DNA of 28,181 bases from Myxococcota bacterium (GTDB taxonomy: Bacteria > Myxococcota > UBA4151), in contig JAPKCE010000001.1 of the NCBI GenBank assembly GCA_028823075.1, positions 1 through 28,181 of the forward strand, in the 5' to 3' direction. Position numbers and translations under genes: made by a program. Under the pieces are notes generated by a model. That model did no database searches. It saw nothing but the letters and a program-made list of their open reading frames with translations, and was not told the DNA's origin. Shown piece after piece: positions 16,221 to 28,181 of the stretch (the stretch's first letter is position 1; each line of letters starts with the position of its first letter).

Positions 16221-16250
16221 TTGCTTTGCGGGCTCGCTGTGCATTATAAG
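16221..16250 (+). promoter_or_regulatory. Candidate sigma70-type promoter, possibly leaderless
   Basis: TTGCTT (16221-16226), an 18-nt spacer, then TATAAG (16245-16250). The ATG at 16257 follows after 6 nt with no Shine-Dalgarno sequence. Confidence 0.4.
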
Positions 16251-16256
16251 TTGATC

Positions 16257-17372
16257 ATGCGCAGATTGATTTATCCTTTGGCTAGCTTTTGTATCGCATG
16301 TTCTGACGGGGGTAGTTTGTATCGAGATGCTCTGCCTGTGGCCGAGAATTTATCGTCGATGGAATCTGTTTGGAGTCATGACTCCTTGGTGCTCAATGGG
16401 GGCCAAGGGCAGTTTGATTTTGTCGTCGCTGAGGGCAGCCAGAGTTTTTTGGTGGTCGTTAGTGGCCTTTCAGGTGCAGAATATTTGATCTCCTCGTTAA
16501 GGGGTCCCGATGGTGTCCTGGTGCGCGCCGAGGCTAATGAGGCGGAAGCTGCTTCTGGCTTTGGTGCCGCGGCGGGTCCTTTCTTTTCACCCAACCGTAG
16601 CGTCGGTGATCATGGCGGCGCTACTTTGTTGGTGCCTAACGACCCGCTGCTTCGTTTGACTCCGGGGCGTTGGGAGTTGGGCGTCACTTCGAGCAGTGTT
16701 GAGCAACATGAGTTGCGCGTGGACCGCTTGGAGTTGCATGCGGCCGGTTTGCCTCTGCGCAGCGTGATCCCACTGACCATTCACCTTAGCGGCGCCGAGG
16801 GGATGACCGGTGCTTTGGGGCGCGGCCATGAGCGTCTTGATCGTGCACTGCAAAAGGTTGAGCAGGTCTACGAGCCCGCCGGCTTAGCGTTTGAGCCTAT
16901 AACCTTTGTTGATTTGGCACCCGAGTTCAGGGTTCTTGATGCGGTTGACCTGCGTTCTCAGAAGGCTTTGCAAATGCTCGGGCGAGGAGTTGGGCGGGCA
17001 GGGATAAACCTCTTTATTATCGAGCGTTTTGAGAACGACGAGGCGCTTTTGGGAGATGTTGGCGGGGTGAGCGCCGCCATTCCGGGGGACCCGCGAGGCG
17101 GTGAGCCTTTATCCGGGGTCGTCGTCGCCACGAGTTTCTCCGAGGATGCGGCGGCGAGAGATCTGCTGGGGTTGACCATGGCGCATGAGATAGGCCATTT
17201 TCTAGGGCTCTTTCACAGTGAAGAGGCGAATGGGTTTGAAGATAACCTTAGCGACACCTTGGCATCAGAGGGTAGCAATTTAATGCATCATTTAAGCCGC
17301 CCTGGGTTTGACGTTTTGAGCGCTGAACAGGGCATGGTGTTGCGCTTGAACCCCGCGATGCAGCTCCCGTGA
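16257..17372 (+). CDS. Probable lipoprotein zinc metalloprotease (metzincin, M43/pappalysin-like?), ~371 aa
   Basis: Signal MRRLIYPLASFCIAC. HEIGHFLGLFH (HExxHxxGxxH) at 17184-17216 and a Met-turn candidate NLM (ATG at 17283). The subfamily assignment is inference. Confidence 0.8.
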   Translation: MRRLIYPLASFCIACSDGGSLYRDALPVAENLSSMESVWSHDSLVLNGGQGQFDFVVAEGSQSFLVVVSGLSGAEYLISSLRGPDGVLVRAEANEAEAASGFGAAAGPFFSPNRSVGDHGGATLLVPNDPLLRLTPGRWELGVTSSSVEQHELRVDRLELHAAGLPLRSVIPLTIHLSGAEGMTGALGRGHERLDRALQKVEQVYEPAGLAFEPITFVDLAPEFRVLDAVDLRSQKALQMLGRGVGRAGINLFIIERFENDEALLGDVGGVSAAIPGDPRGGEPLSGVVVATSFSEDAAARDLLGLTMAHEIGHFLGLFHSEEANGFEDNLSDTLASEGSNLMHHLSRPGFDVLSAEQGMVLRLNPAMQLP

Positions 17373-17761
17373 GCGGCCTTTTCATCTTATCTTTGGCGCT
17401 GCTCGTCGATGGCCATCATGCGCTCCCCGCTCAACCCGGCGAGGTCGCTTGTTGGCAGGCAGAAGGCGCGCTCAGAACGCACCTTTTGAGCGGTCGTCGG
17501 CCGCAGCGCAGACGCGCGCTTATCCTGCTTGAGCGCTGCTCGTTCACGCTTGATTGGGCGCGTTTACGCGCCGACAACGACCCTGAGATGGCGCTCGTGG
17601 CTTGGCGTTACAGTTTGCAAAACGCAGTCGTCGACGACCCGCGTTGGGCGCAGGCTTTACAGCAACTTCCCAAGGCTCAAGGTCGCAGCGTCTTGCGCCT
17701 TCACAATAAGCGGCGCAGGGCCAATTTGGCTCCCGGACTACCCATCGAGGATGTGCGCTGA
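17369..17761 (+). CDS. Small hypothetical secreted protein (130 aa)
   Basis: Overlaps both neighbours (GTGA upstream, TGATG downstream), which supports a real gene. Hydrophobic N-terminus SGLFILSLALLV; no recognisable motif. Confidence 0.55.
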   Translation: MSGLFILSLALLVDGHHALPAQPGEVACWQAEGALRTHLLSGRRPQRRRALILLERCSFTLDWARLRADNDPEMALVAWRYSLQNAVVDDPRWAQALQQLPKAQGRSVLRLHNKRRRANLAPGLPIEDVR

Positions 17762-19140
17762 TGTTCTTATTACTTCTTGCGGTGGCGACGCAAAACCCGC
17801 TGACTTTGGTGTATACGGGTGATCGTATGGGCAAGGTTGAACCGTGCGGTTGCCCGCAAAACCCTATGGGTCATATCGCCCGCCAGGTCGCGGCCATCGA
17901 CGGTTATCGCTCAAGTGGGGAAAATTACCTGTTCTTTGATCTCGGAAATCTGTTTTTCGAATCGCTTCAGAGCCCCAAGGAATTGCGCGAACAGCATGCG
18001 CGTCGAGCGGCTATTTTAAGCCGCAGCGTGGCGCGTATGCAGCTTGATTTTTTAGTGCCGGGCCCCACGGATTTCCACGCTGGGTTTGAAGGTTATAAAC
18101 GTTTGGTATCGGCATCAAAAACGCCCGTACTGGCGGCCGACTTAAGCACAAAGGATGGGCTGCCAGCCTTTGAGAGTCATCGGGTTTTTAAGCGCGCAGG
18201 TAAACGTATTTTAGTGATCGGCATCGCCGGGTTTACCCCGCAGGGGAGCGAGTTTGTGTTGCAGGATGCCCTCGATACTGTGCGGAGCATTCGCGCAAAG
18301 GCTGGGGCGGTTGATATAACGATCGTTGCATCCCATCTGGATCGCCCGGCGGCGCTCAGACTTGCCAGCGAGGAGCCAGGTTTAGCAGCCGTTTTGGTGG
18401 CCGATAATCACCTGCACCTGATTCCCAAAGAGGCAGGGGGAGCGGTGGTTGTCGGTAGTTCGAAGCAGGGCAAACACCTGGCTGAACTCAAACTTTGGCA
18501 GCGTCAAAGCGGTGCTTACGCCGGCGGTATGAAGATGCGCCGTTTACAGATAAAACTGCGCAAGGCCAGCGGCGCTGAACGCGCCGTTTTACAACAAGAA
18601 CTAGACGGCCTAAACGCGGGGAATACCTTTAAGTATCGCATCGAAGCGATGGGTGAGCAGCGGCCAGAAGACGCCGAAGTGGCTACCTGGGTTAAAGCGT
18701 ATGTGCATTTTGTTGGGCGCATGGAGGCGGCGCGCGGCGTGGCTCCTCCGGGCTACGATGGGTCGGGTGATTTCGCTGGGTTTGAGGTTTGTGCTGCTTG
18801 TCATGGTAAAATTAACGAGCAGTGGAAAAACACTCGCCACGCCCACGCCTACCAAAGCCTGCTCGACCGAGGGCAGCAACTCGACCGCGAATGCATCGCT
18901 TGTCACAGCGCGGGCTGGCGTCACCCTGGAGGGTTTTCGGACCCGCGCAGCGTTGGAATCCTTAAAAATGTGCAATGTGAAAGCTGTCACGGACCCGGAA
19001 AAGCACATGCTCAGAGCGGCGATAAAGCGCTGATCGAGCGCGGCAAGGGCGAGGCAAAATTTTGCCATCGTTGCCATCAAGAAGAGCTTGAGACCGGCTT
19101 CACCGAAGCTACCCATTTACCGCTTATAAAGCACTGGTGA
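17761..19140 (+). CDS. UshA/5'-nucleotidase-like metallophosphoesterase N-domain fused to a tetraheme cytochrome c554-like domain
   Basis: N-domain motifs LTLVYTGD...EPCGCP...ARQ, FFDLGN, PGPTDF, RILVIGI and IVASH. Four CxxCH motifs at 18790, 18892, 18976 and 19063. The W..T.HAHA after heme 1 and CESCHGPG..H are typical of c554-like domains. Confidence 0.82.
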   Translation: MFLLLLAVATQNPLTLVYTGDRMGKVEPCGCPQNPMGHIARQVAAIDGYRSSGENYLFFDLGNLFFESLQSPKELREQHARRAAILSRSVARMQLDFLVPGPTDFHAGFEGYKRLVSASKTPVLAADLSTKDGLPAFESHRVFKRAGKRILVIGIAGFTPQGSEFVLQDALDTVRSIRAKAGAVDITIVASHLDRPAALRLASEEPGLAAVLVADNHLHLIPKEAGGAVVVGSSKQGKHLAELKLWQRQSGAYAGGMKMRRLQIKLRKASGAERAVLQQELDGLNAGNTFKYRIEAMGEQRPEDAEVATWVKAYVHFVGRMEAARGVAPPGYDGSGDFAGFEVCAACHGKINEQWKNTRHAHAYQSLLDRGQQLDRECIACHSAGWRHPGGFSDPRSVGILKNVQCESCHGPGKAHAQSGDKALIERGKGEAKFCHRCHQEELETGFTEATHLPLIKHW

Positions 19141-19141
19141 T

Positions 19142-19660
19142 TTAGCGCGCTGTCGGTGCTCTTTGTAGCCCGAAGCGCAGTAATTTCCAGGTCCTGCCTT
19201 GGTTATCTTGCCCGCGCAGTAGGCCGTGAATCGGCACCCGCGGGTGGTACAGAGACTGGGCGTATGCGACCACGCCGACAAAGCGCCCTGCGGGAACCTC
19301 GACGGCTTTAGCGAGCGAACGCACGGGCTCGTTTCGGCGTTGGCGCAAAAAGGGATCGTCAGGGCTGTTTAGAGCGAGCGTCTTATGTTCAAAAGAATGT
19401 GCGCTTCGGCGGTTTAGCTCAACCTGCCAGCCCTTGGGCCCGTTGCGTAGGACGACGGTCAATAAGACACTGCCGGCGTCTCCGCTTTCTTCGTAAATAG
19501 CCCATTGCTCAACGCTTGGGGTCAAGGCCGCGGTCGAACCGAGAGCATCGTAGCGCGGTAGGGGGCTGAGCGGGGCATCAACCGAGGCTTGGACGGCTCG
19601 GTATTGGGCGCTGGCACAACCCCCAAGCATGATGATCAGGCTGAGGCTTGCACGTGGCAT
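19142..19660 (-). CDS. Hypothetical lipoprotein (172 aa)
   Basis: MPRASLSLIIMLGGC has a canonical lipobox (LGGC). It is the last gene of a tightly packed three-gene run. Confidence 0.6.
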   Translation of the reverse strand: MPRASLSLIIMLGGCASAQYRAVQASVDAPLSPLPRYDALGSTAALTPSVEQWAIYEESGDAGSVLLTVVLRNGPKGWQVELNRRSAHSFEHKTLALNSPDDPFLRQRRNEPVRSLAKAVEVPAGRFVGVVAYAQSLYHPRVPIHGLLRGQDNQGRTWKLLRFGLQRAPTAR

Positions 19661-19665
19661 TAATG

Positions 19666-20046
19666 TTAGCCGGCGTCGGCCGAGGCGTCGACCGGGCTGC
19701 TTACATCGGCAGCTGCGGGCCCAGAATCTTGGATGGGCTCAGCGCCTGCATCGACGACAGCGCCTGCGTCGACTTCAGGGCAGAGTTCTGGACGCTCTTG
19801 GCAGAGGTAGTCGCTCGTGCTGATCTGGCAAGCGCCTTCGACGCAGCGATACCCGGGCAGGCAACTGTCTTCGATGGCTCCACCACCTAAGGCGTCGAGC
19901 ACAAAACCGCATTCTTTCGGCCCGCAAACCCGCCCTCGGCCGCAGATATCTCCGACCGGGCAGTCTTCAGCGCTGTCACAGCTGCGCTCGCTGCAACTGC
20001 TCGCCATGCAAGGCAAGGCCAAGGCGACGAGCACAAGCAATCTCAA
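19666..20046 (-). CDS. Small Cys-rich probable lipoprotein with acidic DAG-repeat tail (126 aa)
   Basis: TTG start in a TTGA overlap. Signal MRLLVLVALALPCMASSC, 10 further Cys including Cx5Cx5Cx5C, and the tail VDAGAVVDAGAEPIQDSG...ADAG. Confidence 0.7.
   Translation of the reverse strand: MRLLVLVALALPCMASSCSERSCDSAEDCPVGDICGRGRVCGPKECGFVLDALGGGAIEDSCLPGYRCVEGACQISTSDYLCQERPELCPEVDAGAVVDAGAEPIQDSGPAAADVSSPVDASADAG
19741..19773. repeat. 18-bp-period imperfect tandem repeat encoding VDAGA twice
   Basis: agcgcctgcatcgac (19741-19755) and agcgcctgcgtcgac (19759-19773) match at 14 of 15 positions. Confidence 0.75.
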
Positions 20047-21617
20047 GGTAGCGCCACGCGAATCGTATAACGAGAAAGCGCCTCGCCATTCGGCATTTTC
20101 ACTTGGTTGCTAGGCAATATAAAATAGGGGTTGTCGAAGATAAGGACCAGGCGGACCGAGATACCGATGTTAGCACTAAAATTCGCGGCGGCGGGTAGGC
20201 GCAAGCGCAATTTACGGGTGTAGCCACTGAGCGCGAAACTCTGACCAGGATACTCTTCGATGAGCAACATATTTGGATAGCTAGGGGTGCCATTGGTTTC
20301 ATAATCGCTCTCGCCAAAAACCGAATTTTCGGCGTCCAAGGGTGCGACGAAAGCAAATTGCGCCAGAACAGACCCAAGACCACTTTGACCGTTGCCTAGG
20401 CGTCTTCCGATGGGCAGATCGGCCTCAAGAATCAGGTCGTCACCACCGTTGATTTGGCCGTCTAGGTTGTGATCGTCCCAGGTCACCGAATAATCCTCAT
20501 CGGAAAAAGGCGCTGCTAGGTTGCTGCTGGTTAAGATGTTGGCGTTACCCATCCAGCTCGCGTCCTCGTCGCCCGCCGCAACAACTCTTAGGCTGAGGTT
20601 GTATTCGGCACCAGCCGCCAGACTCCCCAGCGCTGGGCTCAGGGTGATCAACCGGCCGCCCGACGAAAACTGTGGTTCCAAGTTCAAGCTGGCATCGCCG
20701 CTCTCATCGACCAAAGAACTGTAGAGGCTGCTCGGGTCGATTGGGCGGTCAAATAGGATGCGAATCGGCGTGCCTTCAGCAAGCGGTATAATATGCTGCC
20801 TGCGCTGCACCAGGTCGCGCAGGTTGGAATGTACCATGCGCAGCGCTCCGTTTTGGCGCAAAGTATGCAGAACCTCGCTGCGTTTACGCACCAATAGGGG
20901 CAAGCGCCCCATCTCGATGAGTTGGCTCAATGGAGTTTGCAAGGTTTCGCCGCGGTTCTCATCGTCAGCGTGAATATGCATGGTGACGGTACCACCGAGT
21001 TGGACGCTGCTGGCACCGAGGTGGCTTAGAGCGGGGGCTCCTGCAAAGCGCAATTGGCCCGTGTCATCACTGCTGCTGACTAGGCTCAAACCACCTTTAG
21101 CGGCACCGCCTTGAGTAAAGGAATAAGGAAATTCAAGACTGACGGTGACGCCGCTCGTCCCGACCAACTGCTCATCAAAGACAGTGCTGGTGAGCGTCGT
21201 CGCTGGCAGTAAACCGATAAGGCCAAAGGTGGCGTGGTTGGTGCTCGAGGGGAAGTTCCCCGCGTCATCGGGCAGCTCGACGATAACTCGCGCGCTGATA
21301 AACCCATCTTTGCTTAGGCTCACCATGGCGCTGCCGCCTGCCGGTAAGCCGCTTATCTCGACCACACCGGAAGCGCTGCTGGCCACGTGGCTACGCAGAC
21401 CGGTATACACGCTAACCTGGACCCCATCGAGAGCCTGCCCACTGCTCTGGTCGAAGACGTAGCCCGACAATGAGCTTTCCGGATGCACCAAGGCGATCTG
21501 CGTGACGCTGCCCGGCGAGTCGCCGAGGCCGTCGCCGTTAAGATCGATATTTTCCTCACTTTCGGCGCCACAAGCGACGAGCATGATGCTCAATAATAGA
21601 TAGATAGTAGTTTTCAT
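20043..21617 (-). CDS. Lipoprotein with carboxypeptidase-regulatory-like and Ig-like beta domains and Ca-binding loops (524 aa)
   Basis: Lipobox LVAC at residue 16. LSGYVFDQSSGQALDGVQVSV is a CarboxypepD_reg-like start, and IRILFDRPIDPSS...ITLSP..L.AGAEYNLSL is Big/Ig-like. Also DLNGDGLGD and DHNLDGQINGGD. Domain names are from motif recognition only. Confidence 0.72.
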   Translation of the reverse strand: MKTTIYLLLSIMLVACGAESEENIDLNGDGLGDSPGSVTQIALVHPESSLSGYVFDQSSGQALDGVQVSVYTGLRSHVASSASGVVEISGLPAGGSAMVSLSKDGFISARVIVELPDDAGNFPSSTNHATFGLIGLLPATTLTSTVFDEQLVGTSGVTVSLEFPYSFTQGGAAKGGLSLVSSSDDTGQLRFAGAPALSHLGASSVQLGGTVTMHIHADDENRGETLQTPLSQLIEMGRLPLLVRKRSEVLHTLRQNGALRMVHSNLRDLVQRRQHIIPLAEGTPIRILFDRPIDPSSLYSSLVDESGDASLNLEPQFSSGGRLITLSPALGSLAAGAEYNLSLRVVAAGDEDASWMGNANILTSSNLAAPFSDEDYSVTWDDHNLDGQINGGDDLILEADLPIGRRLGNGQSGLGSVLAQFAFVAPLDAENSVFGESDYETNGTPSYPNMLLIEEYPGQSFALSGYTRKLRLRLPAAANFSANIGISVRLVLIFDNPYFILPSNQVKMPNGEALSRYTIRVALP

Positions 21618-21789
21618 CGTAACCTTTCGAAGGTTTTGCTTTAAGCGGGGATAGCGCAGCGGTCAACGCTCTGTGACGAGTAGTCTTTTTTGACTGCGTC
21701 TAGGAGCTTTGACCGATGCCCGTTGCACCGGGTCTCCACGAGGAGTACCACCCCGCCGTAAATCATCAAATTTCCTTTTAGGAGAGAAC

Positions 21790-24700
21790 ATGCGTCAGCT
21801 TCTAAGCGCCCTTGCTTTGGTTGGTCTTTTTTCTGCGTGTGCGCAGGATGTCGCCGATATTGATCGTACCAAACCCAACAAGGTTCATAAGTCGATGTTC
21901 CAAGGGACTTGGTACTTTCGTGGCACCGTCACCGAAGTCGCTCCAGATATGGCCGGACTTTTTGAGGGCATCGCAACGGGTCTATCGAAGGTTCGTTGGG
22001 AGATCACCGAGAGCGAGCTGCGCGGTTGGACGAGCAACGAGACCGTCATCGGTATGGATCAAGAAATTGATGATTGCCGCCGAGTCAACACGGTGCACGT
22101 CGACGGGCGTATCGATATTGAAGAGACGCGGGACGAAGATTGCATGCGTCGCTCGGCGCTCGACGGGCCTCAGTTGAACCAAGATGGATATCGCACGCGC
22201 TGGGGTCGTTTACCTGACGCCTATAAAGGTTCGATGGTGATCAGCTTTCCCATCGCCGGACATTTCGATGTTAAGCGTGGCTATAACCCAGCAACGGGCG
22301 AGCAGACCAATGTGCTCGGCGAAAACGCCAGCGATCGCGACTGGTGGCAGCGCGATTATATGCGCGTCAGTTGGGGCAGCCCCTCGGTGCAGTTTATCAA
22401 CGGCGAACTGGTCAACAGCTACGGCGATGATTCTGAGCCTGAAAATTCCGATCACCGCATCCGTTTTCTCACCGATGATGGGACGTCGGTCGCCAATGGT
22501 CAGGCTGCCGAAGGCCAAGAAGTCCGCTATTTCGACTTTGGTACTCGCCAGGCTGCCACCATGTACGCTCTCTACGGCGGGCGTCGTTACCCTTATTGCT
22601 ACTTCTCTGAGACCACTTCTTGCGATGCCGCAAAGGTGGCTATGCGTTATTCCTTCTTAAAGACGGAGGCCATGCGCGACTTCGCGCCGGTAGCTTACGA
22701 CGATACCAAAATGGGTCGCTTCGGTTACTTTCGCACCGAGCGTTACGGTCATATGCGCCGTCGCGGTCTCACCGAGTCCGGGCGCGTGCGTTTGGCCTCA
22801 GTGCATAATCTATGGAAAACCACCTACCAGCGTAAGGCCGACGGAAACTATAAGCTCGAAGCGGTAAAAAATGATGCTGATGAGACCGTCGCTTATCGCC
22901 GTATGGAGATTCCGGTTCAGGAGCGTCAGCCGAAACCGATGGCCTATCACCTGTCACCGTACTTCCCTGAAGCCATTAAAGAATATGCGTATCGTGTGGG
23001 TGATTCTTGGAACGACGCTTATCGCCGCACCATCGCTGCGGCTTGGGGTTACCAAAGCGCCAGTGAAGCCGATGAGGATAATGCAGGCATTCCCGATATG
23101 TATGTCGTTTGCGACAATCCGGTTCCTGCCGAAATTCCGGCGCGCTATCGCGGCGGTTTGGGCGACGCTTACTACGAAGTTTGTGGTGCCGCTGGCACCC
23201 GCGCTTTGCCCGGCGATCTGCGCTACAACACCATGTATTGGGTGCATGACCGCAACGATGGACCTTTAGGTTACGGCCCCTCCTACCAAGATCCCGAGAG
23301 CGGCGAGACCATCTCGGGGACAGCTTGGGTCTACGGCGCCGCTGTCGATACCTATGCTCAATATGCCTTGGACCTTGTCAACGCCATGAACGGCGACCTG
23401 GACATCGACGACATTCGCAGCGGTGATTACGTCAAGGCTATGGTCGCTGGTAGCCGCCATGTCACCGACCCGCGCAACATGCCCATCGAAGATTTTGATA
23501 ATTTGCTGAAAGATGAAGACGGCCCGCTCGGCCCTTCCGGCCGCGCCGTGATGGAGCGTATTGAGCGTATTTCGGCTGACCCTGCTGGTGAGTTGGGCGA
23601 CGACATCACCCATGCTCGTCATCGCCGTATGCAGCGGTTCTTAAAGGAGTCGCCGCTCGCTGACGATCTGGTCAATGGCGAGATTTTAGCTGCGGCAGCT
23701 GGCAATCGCATGACGCCCGGTGGCACGGTTACCGATGCCATGCACGACGACGCGCGCTCGTTGCTCAGTGGTAATATGGACGCCATTGAGCGGCGCAAAG
23801 AGATCAACGATGTGGCTTCGCATTTGTCGATCTGGACTCGCGACAATTTTGAAGACTCCAGTTTGATCGGTTTGGCGAAAGAGATGAAGGAGCGTTACGC
23901 CGACCGTCCTGACGCCCAAGATGAGATGTACCAAGAGCTGCGCGGCCGTATTTTCCAGGGTGTGATGGAGCATGAGGTGGGTCATACCCTCGGATTACGC
24001 CATAACTTTGCGGGCTCTTACGACGCTATGAATTACCAAGATGACTTCTGGCGTGTGCGCAAAGCCGGTTTAAAACGCGCCTGGACCAACATCCATAGCG
24101 ACGGTTCGTTAACCGTTAGTGATTTGCTCGGGTTTCGCAATCTAACAAGCGGCGAGCTTGAAGGTGCCGGGGCCGAAGATGGTCAGTACGGTGGGGTTAG
24201 CGAGTATCAGTACAGCTCGATCATGGATTACGGTGCCACATTTAACTCGGATTTCCACGGCATTGGTAAGTACGATGAAGCCGCTATTTTGTTTGGTTAT
24301 GCCGGCAAAGTTGAGGTCTTCGACCAGCTCAGCCGTAACAATAAATACCTTCTAAAAGGTTCGGCCGAGACGGTTTTATCGTCTCATGCCTGGGACGTCG
24401 GTACCGGCAATTACAATTGCCTACCTAGCTTTGAAGACCGCGTTAGCCCTGGCGAAAAAGCGCTTACCGAAAAGCTGCATTACGCCTGGTTACCTATCCT
24501 CTTCTCGGACGCTGCGGCTCCCTCGGGCGACGCCGGTGCTGCGGTTAACGCTGCGGTGGAAGCTGGCGTCACGAACCTTGGCCCGAGCAACCGTCGTTTG
24601 ATCGATTATTCGGTGATCGAAGAGCAGCTCAATGTCGAGCGCGAGCACCGCCGAACGCATCGTCAAGACTGCGCCAAAGAGTCGGCCGCCTTGCATCCTG

Positions 24701-26214
24701 ATCGCCCGGTGATGGTGCCGTATATGTTCTGCTCTGACGAATGGGTCGGCAGCGTCGCTAACTGCAACCGTTGGGACGAAGGCGCCGATCCGGCAGCAAT
24801 TCTCGAGCGTACCATGAACCAGCTTGATGATTATTACTGGTTTAACAACTATAAGCGTGACCGGGTTAGCTTTAGCACCACCTCGCCAGCGAACCGCGCC
24901 TTGTCGCGCACCTATCCGACGATGTTGCTGATGTACCAACAGTGGCTCTTTGGCCGCAATCAGACGGATCTCATTCTCGAGTATCCGTGGCGCACGGGTG
25001 TCTTTGATTCGCTCAACCGCTTTGGTGAGGTGCTCAGTAAACCGCGCTACGGCACCTATTATTTGAGCAACAATGGCGAGGACGCCTACCTCTATGATTA
25101 TGAGCCTCGCGCCCTCGGTGAAGAGCTCGACCAGGTGAATAATATCGCTATTACCGCCGACTTTGTTGTGCCTCGAGGCGTGGGTCGCAAACCCTTCTCA
25201 AGTTACGATTATGATGGTGGTTATTACTACTATGAACGTCCGCTTGAGGCAGGCCATTTCTGGGATTTCTACGCGGCTTTGTTGAGTCAAGGAAACGCCA
25301 CGGCGGCTATTCTCGGTACCGAATCAGCGGCCGACCAGCGACGCTTTTACCTGCCCTTCCACCTGGTTTTCCCGGAATCGCTCGATCGTTTGTATTCGGG
25401 TATCATCACCAACCGCCAAAAGGATTATGCGCCCAAGCTCTTTGTGCGTGACCTTGGCGGTGATGAGGCGGCTTGTGTGGCCTCTGGCTCTAGAGTCGGC
25501 GGCACGGGCATCACCGGAAAAGACAATGATTGTTATTTGATGGTGGGCAAGCCGATCTTTGATTGGCGCGGCGTCACCTCGGGCGCTTTGGTCGATGGCG
25601 AGCGCAATTATGCAGCGCCCTTCGCGACCAACGACGTCGACGGTGAGAATTGGGATGATGGCATCACCGTTCGTCTGCACAATAATTATACTAACAAACT
25701 CTACGCAACGATCTTCGGTGCCATGTTCTTTACCTCCACCTGGGAGCGTAACTTTATCGATGGGATGAAGATATGGCGCGTCGGTACTTCCGAGGACCAT
25801 AGCATCGCCCCTGGCCATCAACGCATCGAGTTCTACGACCCGCGCAGTGGCTTTGTTTACGCATCTCAGTCGGAGAAAGTGCGCCCCTGTGCGGTCACCG
25901 ACGAAGAGCGAGACAACGCCTTGGCCGTGCGTACTATCTGTGATGGACAGGTGGCTCAGGGCGACTGGAATGATGCCGACACCGCCCTTTCCGAAGCTGA
26001 CGAGAATATTGAAAACCAAGATCTTGATTGCGATGCTAACGGCGTGCCGGACGAATGTTCCCAAGACCGAGCGCGCGATGGCTTGAACCTGGCCGACCAA
26101 TGTGTTCGTAAGCTCTGCGCCCAGGACGCGAAGCGCTTTGCGGATAGCCGTTTGGACGATGCGGTGAGCTGGTCCTTACGTTTCCGTGATCTTTACCGCG
26201 CCCTGGTCGACTAA
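21790..26214 (+). CDS. Giant lipoprotein zinc metalloprotease (metzincin), ~1474 aa
   Basis: AGGAG RBS, then MRQLLSALALVGLFSAC (lipobox-like). Motifs GYGPSYQDPESGETISG, HEVGHTLGLRHNFAGS (23971-24003 onward), Met-turn SSIMDYG (ATG 24223) and YMFCSDE. Confidence 0.88.
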   Translation: MRQLLSALALVGLFSACAQDVADIDRTKPNKVHKSMFQGTWYFRGTVTEVAPDMAGLFEGIATGLSKVRWEITESELRGWTSNETVIGMDQEIDDCRRVNTVHVDGRIDIEETRDEDCMRRSALDGPQLNQDGYRTRWGRLPDAYKGSMVISFPIAGHFDVKRGYNPATGEQTNVLGENASDRDWWQRDYMRVSWGSPSVQFINGELVNSYGDDSEPENSDHRIRFLTDDGTSVANGQAAEGQEVRYFDFGTRQAATMYALYGGRRYPYCYFSETTSCDAAKVAMRYSFLKTEAMRDFAPVAYDDTKMGRFGYFRTERYGHMRRRGLTESGRVRLASVHNLWKTTYQRKADGNYKLEAVKNDADETVAYRRMEIPVQERQPKPMAYHLSPYFPEAIKEYAYRVGDSWNDAYRRTIAAAWGYQSASEADEDNAGIPDMYVVCDNPVPAEIPARYRGGLGDAYYEVCGAAGTRALPGDLRYNTMYWVHDRNDGPLGYGPSYQDPESGETISGTAWVYGAAVDTYAQYALDLVNAMNGDLDIDDIRSGDYVKAMVAGSRHVTDPRNMPIEDFDNLLKDEDGPLGPSGRAVMERIERISADPAGELGDDITHARHRRMQRFLKESPLADDLVNGEILAAAAGNRMTPGGTVTDAMHDDARSLLSGNMDAIERRKEINDVASHLSIWTRDNFEDSSLIGLAKEMKERYADRPDAQDEMYQELRGRIFQGVMEHEVGHTLGLRHNFAGSYDAMNYQDDFWRVRKAGLKRAWTNIHSDGSLTVSDLLGFRNLTSGELEGAGAEDGQYGGVSEYQYSSIMDYGATFNSDFHGIGKYDEAAILFGYAGKVEVFDQLSRNNKYLLKGSAETVLSSHAWDVGTGNYNCLPSFEDRVSPGEKALTEKLHYAWLPILFSDAAAPSGDAGAAVNAAVEAGVTNLGPSNRRLIDYSVIEEQLNVEREHRRTHRQDCAKESAALHPDRPVMVPYMFCSDEWVGSVANCNRWDEGADPAAILERTMNQLDDYYWFNNYKRDRVSFSTTSPANRALSRTYPTMLLMYQQWLFGRNQTDLILEYPWRTGVFDSLNRFGEVLSKPRYGTYYLSNNGEDAYLYDYEPRALGEELDQVNNIAITADFVVPRGVGRKPFSSYDYDGGYYYYERPLEAGHFWDFYAALLSQGNATAAILGTESAADQRRFYLPFHLVFPESLDRLYSGIITNRQKDYAPKLFVRDLGGDEAACVASGSRVGGTGITGKDNDCYLMVGKPIFDWRGVTSGALVDGERNYAAPFATNDVDGENWDDGITVRLHNNYTNKLYATIFGAMFFTSTWERNFIDGMKIWRVGTSEDHSIAPGHQRIEFYDPRSGFVYASQSEKVRPCAVTDEERDNALAVRTICDGQVAQGDWNDADTALSEADENIENQDLDCDANGVPDECSQDRARDGLNLADQCVRKLCAQDAKRFADSRLDDAVSWSLRFRDLYRALVD

Positions 26215-26238
26215 CAAAGAGGCCTTTTGGAGCTGATG

Positions 26239-27306
26239 ATGATGCGATTGTTTGTGATGATCTTGTTCGCCGCCGCCCCTGCGCAGGCTTCGGATAACCC
26301 GGCGATGACCACCGCGCCAAAGGGGTCTTTCCCCTTCTCTGGCTCCGTCAGTTGGGGTCATTCGCTGGGGCAGGGCAGTTTTGTGCGCAACTATTACGCG
26401 CGCAACGCCGCCTATTCTCAGAGCTTGGGCCTGTCGGGTTCTTGGAGCTTACCTTGGAAGGGCTACAGCCTGTCGGCTAGCCAGGGCTGGGGTATGGAGC
26501 TGACCACAGGTGGTTCCATGCGCAATCATGAGCTTAACTACGGTGACATCGGGCTCGGTTTCGGCCTGCCCTTTGGCTTTAAAGCCTTGGGGTTCAAGTT
26601 TGGTAGCCGCATCGGCGCCGGCATCCCCATCTCCAAAGCGAGCCGCTTTATGGGTAAAGTCACGGGCCTCTCCGGGGCGCTCTCGGGTGGCCGCAAGTTC
26701 GGTGACAAACTCAGCGTATCCTTGAGCATGAGTTTATCGCGCAGCTTCTACACCGAGCGTCTGCGCACGGTCGACGTTAGCGACGGGCGCGGCTTTGTCG
26801 ATACTAACGGCAACACCTTAACCCCCTTTAATCAGATCTGCCGCGACGAGGAATTGGTGCTTAGCGGCGCCGGTGAAGTCACCGGTTGCCGGGTTGCAGG
26901 CGTTAACGGTGGCATCAACTTAAGCAGCTCCATCGGGGTCTCTTATAAGGTCGATAAAAAGCTCTCCGCATCGGCTAGCTTAGCTTTTATCAACAGTTTT
27001 AAAGATTACAGCATGCCCGTTGATGGCTTTGCATCGTCTTTTGCTCAGTCCGGTATCGGCCGTTCGGATATGACCTCGGGCAGCTTGGGCTTGGGTTATG
27101 CGTATTCTAAAAAAATTCGCATGGGTTTGTCCATGTCCAGCACCCAACCGGCGCTGCATTGGTCGAGCGATGATGTCGCCGATGAAAATGGCAACATTTC
27201 CCAAGTCGGTCAGGGCAGCTGGACCCCCAACTTTCCATGGTGGGATTTCCGCACGACCGCCAATAACTACAGCTCCTTTTCGGGCAGCGTGAGTTACTCC
27301 TTCTAA
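26239..27306 (+). CDS. Probable outer-membrane beta-barrel protein (~355 aa)
   Basis: GGAG RBS at 26229-26232 and signal peptide MMRLFVMILFAAAPAQA. Many alternating Gly/Ser/aromatic strands (FSGSVSWGHSL, LSVSLSMSLSRSFY, LSSSIGVSYKV) and the C-terminal beta-signal FSGSVSYSF. The exact start among three tandem ATGs is uncertain. Confidence 0.75.
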   Translation: MMRLFVMILFAAAPAQASDNPAMTTAPKGSFPFSGSVSWGHSLGQGSFVRNYYARNAAYSQSLGLSGSWSLPWKGYSLSASQGWGMELTTGGSMRNHELNYGDIGLGFGLPFGFKALGFKFGSRIGAGIPISKASRFMGKVTGLSGALSGGRKFGDKLSVSLSMSLSRSFYTERLRTVDVSDGRGFVDTNGNTLTPFNQICRDEELVLSGAGEVTGCRVAGVNGGINLSSSIGVSYKVDKKLSASASLAFINSFKDYSMPVDGFASSFAQSGIGRSDMTSGSLGLGYAYSKKIRMGLSMSSTQPALHWSSDDVADENGNISQVGQGSWTPNFPWWDFRTTANNYSSFSGSVSYSF

Positions 27307-27320
27307 TTGGAGCTTAGCCG

Positions 27321-28181
27321 ATGGATGCGCAGATCATCGTTATCGGCGGCGGTCATGCAGGCTGCGAGGCTGCGTTAGCCGCAGCGCGGTCCGGTGCCTC
27401 TACCTTGCTCATAACGCTGCGCCAGGATGGTATTGGCGAGCTTAGTTGTAACCCGGCGATGGGCGGTTTGGCCAAAGGCCACCTCATCCGTGAGCTCGAC
27501 GCTTTGGGCGGTGAGATCGGCAGAATGACCGATCGTTGCACCCTGTTTCGCCACACCTTGAACCGCAGTCGCGGGCCGGCCGTACGCGGCACCCGCGCCC
27601 AGGTTGACCGGCCTTTGTATCGGACTTTGATGCAAGGCGTGATCGCTGCACAACCCGGTTTGAGCGTGGTCGAAGGTCGAGTCTCCGGTTTTCTTTGTGA
27701 AAACGATCGCTGCGTCGGTGTTGAACTGGCCGACGGGAGCGTTTTGCGCAGCGACGCGGTGATTCTAACCACCGGCACATTTTTGGGTGCGATTTGTCAT
27801 CGCGGCGAGGAAGAGACAGCCGGCGGACGTCATGGCGAAACCCAGGTTGATGACGGGTCGATCTCGTCTCAACTGCGTCGCTTGGGGCTGCGGCTACAGC
27901 GTTTAAAGACCGGGACTTGCCCGCGTATTCATCGCGACAGCATCGACTACACCAAGCTTGATATTCAACACAGCGAGGATGATACGTCGCCGTTTTCCGA
28001 TGCGGGTGACAAAGGTCCTGCCGAGCAGGTCAATTGTTGGGGTGTGCGTACCAATGAGGCCGTGCACGATGTGGTGCGCCAAAATTTACAACGCTCGCCG
28101 ATGTACGCAGGAACTTTGATAGCGGAAGGGCCGCGTTATTGCCCAAGTTTCGAAGATAAAGTGGCGCGTTTTGGTGATAGG
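27321..28181 (+). CDS. mnmG: tRNA uridine-5-carboxymethylaminomethyl modification enzyme MnmG/GidA (3'-truncated by window edge)
   Basis: Hand translation from ATG 27321 (GGAG upstream) gives MDAQIIVIGGGHAGCEAA...SCNPAMGGLAKGHLIRELDALGG...LNRSRGPAVRGTRAQVDR...LKTGTCPR...GPRYCPSFEDK. The frame is open to the edge. Confidence 0.97.
   Translation, partial: MDAQIIVIGGGHAGCEAALAAARSGASTLLITLRQDGIGELSCNPAMGGLAKGHLIRELDALGGEIGRMTDRCTLFRHTLNRSRGPAVRGTRAQVDRPLYRTLMQGVIAAQPGLSVVEGRVSGFLCENDRCVGVELADGSVLRSDAVILTTGTFLGAICHRGEEETAGGRHGETQVDDGSISSQLRRLGLRLQRLKTGTCPRIHRDSIDYTKLDIQHSEDDTSPFSDAGDKGPAEQVNCWGVRTNEAVHDVVRQNLQRSPMYAGTLIAEGPRYCPSFEDKVARFGDR

Follow-up and report, generated by a model that had tools for sequence, protein, structure and literature searches.

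Background

How large lipoproteins reach the surface of Gram-negative bacteria, and what they do there, is known for only a few systems. In Slam or type XI systems a lipoprotein gene lies beside a gene for an outer-membrane barrel, the Slam protein itself being a DUF560 barrel of 14 strands with an N-terminal periplasmic TPR domain. SusCD/RagAB systems likewise combine a surface lipoprotein, here of the SusD-like type, with a barrel in the acquisition of polymer fragments, and the barrels in question (SusC and RagA) are TonB-dependent, plugged, 22-stranded proteins of about 1000 amino acids. The SslE/YghJ proteins of Enterobacteria are lipoprotein zinc metalloproteases of about 1500 amino acids which act on extracellular protein; they belong to another peptidase family than the protein described here, are exported by type II secretion and are not known to be encoded beside a small barrel. 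Among simpler barrels, FapF exports unfolded polypeptide through the outer membrane (PMC5557850), and the COG4313 barrels are channels through which small hydrophobic molecules are taken up (PMC4493636). Here we describe a pair of genes in a 28,181-nucleotide stretch of DNA (hereafter the window; contig JAPKCE010000001.1, positions 1 to 28,181 of the forward strand, assembly GCA_028823075.1) from an uncultured marine member of the Myxococcota (GTDB lineage UBA4151), which encode a giant lipoprotein metalloprotease of the metzincin type and, immediately downstream, a small predicted outer-membrane beta-barrel.

The pair is real, conserved and unstudied: its parts are of known broad kinds, and what is new is their pairing and mechanism. 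An initial annotation, made from the sequence alone, had not recognized it as a characterized system, and we too found no publication on the protease family or the cassette; a paper on the predation proteome of Bdellovibrio does not mention the cassette. In no fewer than three phyla, lipoprotein proteases of 1200-2000 residues are linked to a small barrel that belongs to an unnamed family. To this the present locus adds a reversed gene order, a minimal version of the barrel, a near-perfect co-occurrence of the two genes at the level of genomes, and a contrast with the short form of the protease found elsewhere.

The protease and barrel genes form a conserved module

The initial annotation had proposed a dedicated two-gene module and had suggested a search for co-occurrence and synteny across Myxococcota. 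Such a search over 41 Myxococcota genomes around the source genome, which are related so that the counts are not independent, recovered both genes in 33 genomes and neither in 7; a single genome showed a weak protease match only, and none contained the barrel alone. By their listed coordinates the two genes adjoin in 25 of the 33 genomes that carry both. A profile of the barrel family matched 143 of 301 Myxococcota genomes, covering 88 of 137 genera, and a giant protease directly adjoins 20 of the 30 best barrel loci. In a search from the protease side, started from the protease alignment and restricted to one genome per species, 15 of 29 giant-protease loci were found to carry an adjacent barrel, and a contig end close upstream cuts five of the 14 loci without one. 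The 15 paired loci include a Bdellovibrio species, two Bacteriovoracaceae and the cultured Photobacterium sp. MCCC 1A19761 (locus L090), and in the pairs of all three groups the lipobox, the HExxHxxGxxH motif and a barrel with a signal peptide are present. Because a cultured Photobacterium carries the cassette, its function can be tested at the bench. The short DUF4953 proteins (about 850 amino acids) behave differently, as none of their 51 loci, drawn from Bacteroidota, Planctomycetota, Gemmatimonadota and other phyla, has a barrel within 7-9 kb. Outside the source family, none of the remaining window genes is found again beside the protease-barrel pair. The pairing is not a matter of chance, and the two genes constitute a conserved, co-inherited module whose members are neighbors in many families of Myxococcota, in Bdellovibrionota and in a Photobacterium.

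The usual gene order elsewhere is barrel-protease, or barrel followed by two tandem proteases. In the source family (this genus and its sister genus) the protease precedes the barrel, which is the reverse of the order in most relatives; this reversal also appears independently in two other families, in one of which the order is protease, protease, barrel. The persistence of the linkage through such reordering points to selection on the pairing itself. The spacing is tight, with a gap of 21 nucleotides in the window and of only 3-4 nucleotides in several homologous loci; the barrel gene thus lies close downstream of the protease gene, as initially annotated, although the spacer then given as about 25 nucleotides is slightly shorter.

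The proteases have a history of duplication. A FastTree phylogeny of 49 of them (midpoint root, no support values weighed) displays an old duplication into P1 and P2 clades, in both of which the same loci are represented, as well as a separate, later duplication. In this tree the window protease groups with loci that consist of a single barrel followed by a single protease. The source genome encodes four giant protease paralogs including that of the window. On contig C524 (841-5856) a weak barrel paralog lies directly upstream of one protease paralog. The remaining two, on contigs C133 and C407, resemble a tandem without a barrel, with a 446-residue lipoprotein and a PHP-type gene after it, an arrangement suggested by comparison with locus L073 of a sister genome.

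The lipoprotein is a metzincin and at best a divergent, enlarged member of DUF4953

The initial annotation of the first gene as a 1474-residue lipoprotein with an intact HExxHxxGxxH motif and Met-turn is upheld by its open reading frame, its lipobox and the invariance of the motifs in an alignment of 66 homologs. The histidines, glutamate and glycine of the zinc-binding motif (H, E, H, G, H) are invariant, as are the M, D and Y of the Met-turn. The N-terminus has the features of a bacterial lipoprotein, with lipidation predicted at Cys17; a simple lipobox pattern finds the lipobox cysteine in 16 of the 22 related proteases examined, and in the alignment this cysteine shows a conservation of at least 90%. 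In the window protease and nearly all its relatives a conserved motif begins only 4-5 residues past the anchor cysteine, so the fold that follows probably sits directly on the membrane without a flexible tether. The same motif could be a sorting or recognition element of the giant proteases.

The only Pfam match of the protease is to PF16313 (DUF4953, 'Met-zincin'), with 45.2 bits against a cut-off of 24.2, and of the 316 profile positions this match covers no more than 3-36, at the zinc helix. The NCBIfam model TIGR03952, for BF0631-type lipoprotein metalloproteinases, gave a score of 14.5, below its cut-off of 208.1, and no DUF5117 or DUF5118 domain was detected in the protease. AlphaFold2 produced a model of residues 18-1217 with a predicted local distance difference test (pLDDT) of 80.9 and a predicted template modeling score (pTM) of 0.86, the last 257 residues (1218-1474) lying outside the modeled region. 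The model starts with a beta-rich N-terminal region (about 370 residues). This is followed by a catalytic domain (model residues ~377-830), into which a helical segment of some 170 residues is inserted, and by a long, mostly helical C-terminal region. When the whole model was compared with 48,161 chains by VIA-align, metzincins dominated the matches, about 35 solved structures aligning over model residues ~290-830. The best of these were EcxA (PDB 4l6t_A, Z 10.0), serralysin (8.5), archaemetzincin (8.4) and MMP-9 (8.2), followed by snapalysin, astacin, ADAMs, fragilysin, ulilysin and leishmanolysin; that these Z values are modest is due to the use of the entire 1200-residue model as the query. 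The N-terminal region gave weak matches only (Z 4-5), to small eight-stranded barrels, from which we draw nothing. Foldseek with the whole model found nothing at E <= 0.001 in the PDB and Swiss-Prot models, and the sequence of the protease had no meaningful match in the PDB.

As motif, conservation and fold agree, the protein is a metzincin, and at best a divergent, much enlarged member of the DUF4953 family. It has in common with DUF4953 proteins and with EcxA, which is M66-related, the HExxHxxGxxH helix and the Met-turn. It differs from typical DUF4953 proteins of about 850 amino acids in its length of 1474 residues and in possessing the N-terminal beta domain, the helical insert and the helical C-terminal region.

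The partner is a 12-stranded barrel of an unnamed family

The second protein has no Pfam match of any kind and no NCBIfam match. An exhaustive phmmer search against 1.84 billion cluster representatives detected 146 relatives at E <= 0.001, of which only 25 reached E <= 1e-10. Modeled by AlphaFold2 with 58 homologs, it forms a barrel with 12 transmembrane strands (pLDDT 88.9, pTM 0.79), in which the periplasmic turns are 2-6 residues and the external loops 10-51 residues long and the strands show alternating hydrophobic and Ser/Gly faces. The segment ahead of strand 1 has only about 13 residues; it is poorly modeled (pLDDT 51-57), and no N-terminal plug is resolved. Together with the signal peptide, beta-strand patterning and terminal YSF that had been noticed at the outset, the confident model confirms the identification of the protein as a predicted outer-membrane beta-barrel, all the features tested for such a protein having been found. 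The long Cys-bounded loop of the initial annotation is likewise present. It corresponds to L4, the longest extracellular loop, and is only partly conserved, its two cysteines occurring in 21 and 37 of the 58 homologs respectively.

The most strongly conserved parts of the family lie outside the membrane. The near-invariant residues (D105, P132, S134, S137, D264 and P335) and a C-terminal loop motif all map to external loops, namely L2, L3, L5 and L6. The strand positions that face the lumen are 77% Gly, Ser, Ala or Thr and 10% charged in the window barrel, and 60% and 14% in the family, values for which other barrel families provide no baseline. In many homologs strand 1 is separated from the signal peptide by 50-220 additional residues (for example P0053, P0090, P0103, P0129 and that encoded at L081:399-1604), a segment rich in Ala and Pro in Myxococcota and in Lys and Glu in a Bdellovibrio. 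The window barrel has almost no such extension, which suggests that the extension is dispensable. A second barrel subfamily, seen in other Myxococcota families (loci L048, L049, L050, L052, L053 and L058), is not encoded beside proteases. Its neighbors within a few hundred bases are a divergent M61 glycyl aminopeptidase gene (four loci, all from one family), the gene for an MscS-type channel (two loci) and lgt (one locus).

The closest fold match of the barrel is FapF (PDB 5o65; Foldseek E 9e-9, VIA-align Z 17.1), and the second-best by both aligners is the COG4313 channel Pput2725 (PDB 4rl8; VIA-align Z 16.5). KdgM, NanC, Tsx and autotransporter barrels trail these top matches by 1-3 Z units. 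Six of the ten ESM Atlas clusters nearest to the barrel carry the domain PF13557 (Phenol_MetA_deg); three of the ten are unnamed and mostly myxobacterial, presumably representing the barrel's own family, and four of the other seven carry PF13557. At the sequence level, PF13557 had no match to the barrel at E <= 0.1 and none to the 58 homologs at E <= 0.01. A search of PDB sequences with the barrel profile recovered neither FapF nor Pput2725, only generic hairpin matches to outer-membrane proteins. Judged from its model, the barrel is like FapF and COG4313 in shape only and belongs to an unnamed family. It agrees with both in having 12 strands and differs from FapF in that its model shows no periplasmic coiled coil. 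The genomic partners also differ: those of FapF and COG4313 are amyloid subunits or aromatic-degradation genes, those of the window barrel giant lipoprotein proteases.

These comparisons bear on the analogs initially offered for the pair, namely the Slam and SusCD/RagAB systems, whose defining features are not found here, the nearest folds being FapF and COG4313 rather than porins or TonB-dependent receptors. We reject identity with Slam since the window barrel, with its 12 strands, is devoid of a periplasmic domain and matches neither DUF560 nor any other Pfam family. Identity with SusCD/RagAB is rejected on the grounds that the mature barrel has 338 residues and 12 strands and that there are no matches to TonB_dep_Rec, Plug or SusD; furthermore, the partner of the window barrel is an enzyme and not a SusD-like protein. 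An autotransporter (type V) arrangement, in which a 12-stranded barrel is covalently linked to the passenger, is also rejected, as there are two open reading frames, each with its own signal peptide, and the fold matches to autotransporter barrels are weaker (Z 13.6-14.4).

Possible functions of the pair

We tentatively favor, while stopping short of calling it probable, the proposal that proteins are digested by the protease at the outer membrane, across which the barrel passes extended peptides, as a passive digest-and-import device for bacteria that feed on prey or biomass protein. Under this scheme the protease would be exported by Sec and lipidated at Cys17, and its first domain would be held directly against the outer membrane. 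The barrel would act as a 12-stranded channel of the FapF/COG4313 structural type with its conserved residues in the extracellular loops; protein would be cleaved by the protease at the outer membrane, and extended peptides would be carried across by the barrel. The localization of the protease, the contact between the two proteins, and the cargo of the barrel and its direction are what we infer here. Digest-and-import is favored because the structural group of the barrel consists of channels, because the barrel is without a periplasmic receiving domain and because its conserved face is external. Furthermore, one barrel often accompanies two tandem proteases, which would fit a shared channel, and most carriers live by predation or degrade protein. 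If the proposal is true, the pair would be a passive counterpart of SusCD/RagAB-type feeding.

Several points weigh against this proposal. Both the site of the protease and the cargo of the barrel are inferred, and a protease acting externally needs a route through the outer membrane, for which the import proposal makes no provision. A barrel is missing beside about half of the giant-protease loci, and the second barrel subfamily does not adjoin proteases. A lumen of mostly small residues and low charge (77% and 10%, as given above) could mean that something packs inside the barrel and that it is not an open pore. Likeness to a 12-strand fold is also no guide to function, with KdgM, NanC and autotransporters lying within 1-3 Z units of the best matches. 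A prediction of the complex between the barrel (residues 20-357) and the N-terminal domain of the protease (model residues 1-372) gave no answer (score 0.00), which is evidence neither way.

A possible but doubtful alternative is that the barrel is an export, display or anchoring device, which moves the giant lipoprotein or its lipid-anchored N-terminus to the surface or holds the protein there. It would be a different 12-stranded barrel with functional likenesses to Slam, which serves neisserial surface lipoproteins, and to the PorP/SprF-type barrels, which serve the giant adhesins of type IX secretion systems. The strict adjacency and the genome-level co-occurrence with a single lipoprotein family speak for such a role, but about half of the giant proteases are encoded without an adjacent barrel. 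The top fold match, FapF, is an exporter of unfolded polypeptides (PMC5557850), and the Ser/Gly-lined lumen could hold a polypeptide segment. However, Slam and FapF both have a periplasmic receiving domain (TPR and coiled coil respectively), which the window barrel lacks, and a cargo of 1474 residues with 19 cysteines would have to cross a 12-stranded lumen in unfolded form. The motif right after the lipidated cysteine could serve in recognition, and the conserved extracellular loops could dock a surface-exposed partner, although there is no Pfam match to DUF560 or to any secretion family. Were export or anchoring the true function, the pair would represent a new surface-lipoprotein pathway. 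Its most specific version, which we consider rather unlikely, is that the barrel is an unrecognized minimal device for the display or anchoring of giant lipoproteins at the surface, by a route other than Slam or that of the Bacteroidota, which arms predators among the Myxococcota and Bdellovibrionota as well as some Vibrionaceae with proteases.

It is also conceivable, though unlikely, that the two proteins are not a unit, the barrel being an ordinary small porin or channel for hydrophobic molecules that is co-transcribed with the protease as part of a common nutrient or stress regulon. The uptake of small hydrophobic molecules by COG4313-type barrels (PMC4493636) is consistent with this. So are the position of the sister barrel subfamily beside an MscS-type channel, an M61 aminopeptidase or lgt instead of proteases, and the many protease loci that have no barrel. 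Yet no neighbor other than the barrel stays with the protease across families, phyla and changes of gene order, the barrel without the protease is seen in none of the sampled genomes, and the gaps are very short (21 nucleotides here, 3-4 nucleotides in several loci). A periplasm-facing lipoprotein is, finally, very improbable; it would act on envelope proteins, whether for quality control or for remodeling during predation or development, and the barrel would be its substrate, regulator or membrane platform. Other bacteria do have outer-membrane lipoprotein metalloproteases whose substrates lie in the envelope, and the domain after the anchor appears to lie tight against the membrane, but the presence of up to four paralogs per genome and the ancient and repeated tandem duplications suggest varied external substrates, the conserved residues of the barrel are extracellular and its periplasmic turns are minimal.

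Genomic setting of the pair

The source is a metagenome-assembled genome of 3.04 Mb with 86% completeness, in which the window is contig C609. The closest protein relatives of the window come, by their source names, from marine Myxococcota or Myxococcales bacteria. The features of the pair are collected in Table 1.

Table 1. Features of the protease-barrel pair, with positions in the window
Feature	Position	Strand	Basis and remarks
Shine-Dalgarno-like AGGAGA	21780..21785	+	Read from sequence; 4 nt ahead of the protease ATG
Protease gene, 1474-aa lipoprotein metzincin, DUF4953-type at best	21790..26214	+	Open reading frame and translation; TAA stop at 26212-26214
Protease signal peptide, residues 1-17	21790..21840	+	Lipobox L-F-S-A-C at residues 13-17; Cys17 predicted lipidated
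Conserved N-terminal motif D-I-D-R-T-x-P-N ... F-x-G-x-W-Y	21841..21930	+	Comparison of paralogs and orthologs; alignment consensus
Zinc-binding motif HEVGHTLGLRH (HExxHxxGxxH)	23971..24003	+	Residues 728-738
Met-turn segment S-S-I-M-D-Y-G	24214..24234	+	S-I-M-D-Y is residues 810-814
Spacer between protease and barrel genes	26215..26235	+	21 nt; GGAG at 26229-26232
Barrel gene, 356-aa precursor, predicted 12-stranded, unnamed family	26236..27306	+	Open reading frame; AlphaFold2 model
Barrel Sec signal peptide	26236..26289	+	Ends A-Q-A, predicted cleavage before Ser; mature barrel 338 aa
Cys-bounded segment in 51-residue extracellular loop L4	26839..26889	+	Sequence and strand map of the model
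Final beta-strand (strand 12), S-V-S-Y-S-F	27286..27303	+	Sequence and model; C-terminal Phe, outer-membrane protein beta-signal type

A sequence scan found no terminator-like site between the protease and barrel genes. Scans of the window for sigma-70 promoters and terminators returned matches at chance level, and a scan for sigma-54 promoters gave matches at chance frequency only; in the intergenic region 21618-21789 the best sigma-54 match still has at least three mismatches.

In the sister genus the entire 16-kb neighborhood is syntenic, as vertical descent predicts. We considered a wider operon made up of window positions 16221-21617 and mnmG and rejected it, as synteny of these genes with the pair is confined to the sister genus and none of the distant loci has them. 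Positions 16221-19140 hold a three-gene unit encoding an M43/M10-like metalloprotease, a 130-residue protein and a fusion of a UshA-like protein with a multihaem cytochrome. Its outer two genes have syntenic counterparts of 35-58% identity in the sister genus, and the 130-residue gene had no match; none of the three was found near the protease-barrel pair in other families. A divergently transcribed gene for a 524-residue CarboxypepD_reg protein (20043-21617, minus strand) is kept beside the pair in this family only. On the other side, mnmG (27321-28181) begins 14 nucleotides past the stop codon of the barrel gene, both in the window and in the sister genus, and may be co-transcribed with the barrel in this family only.

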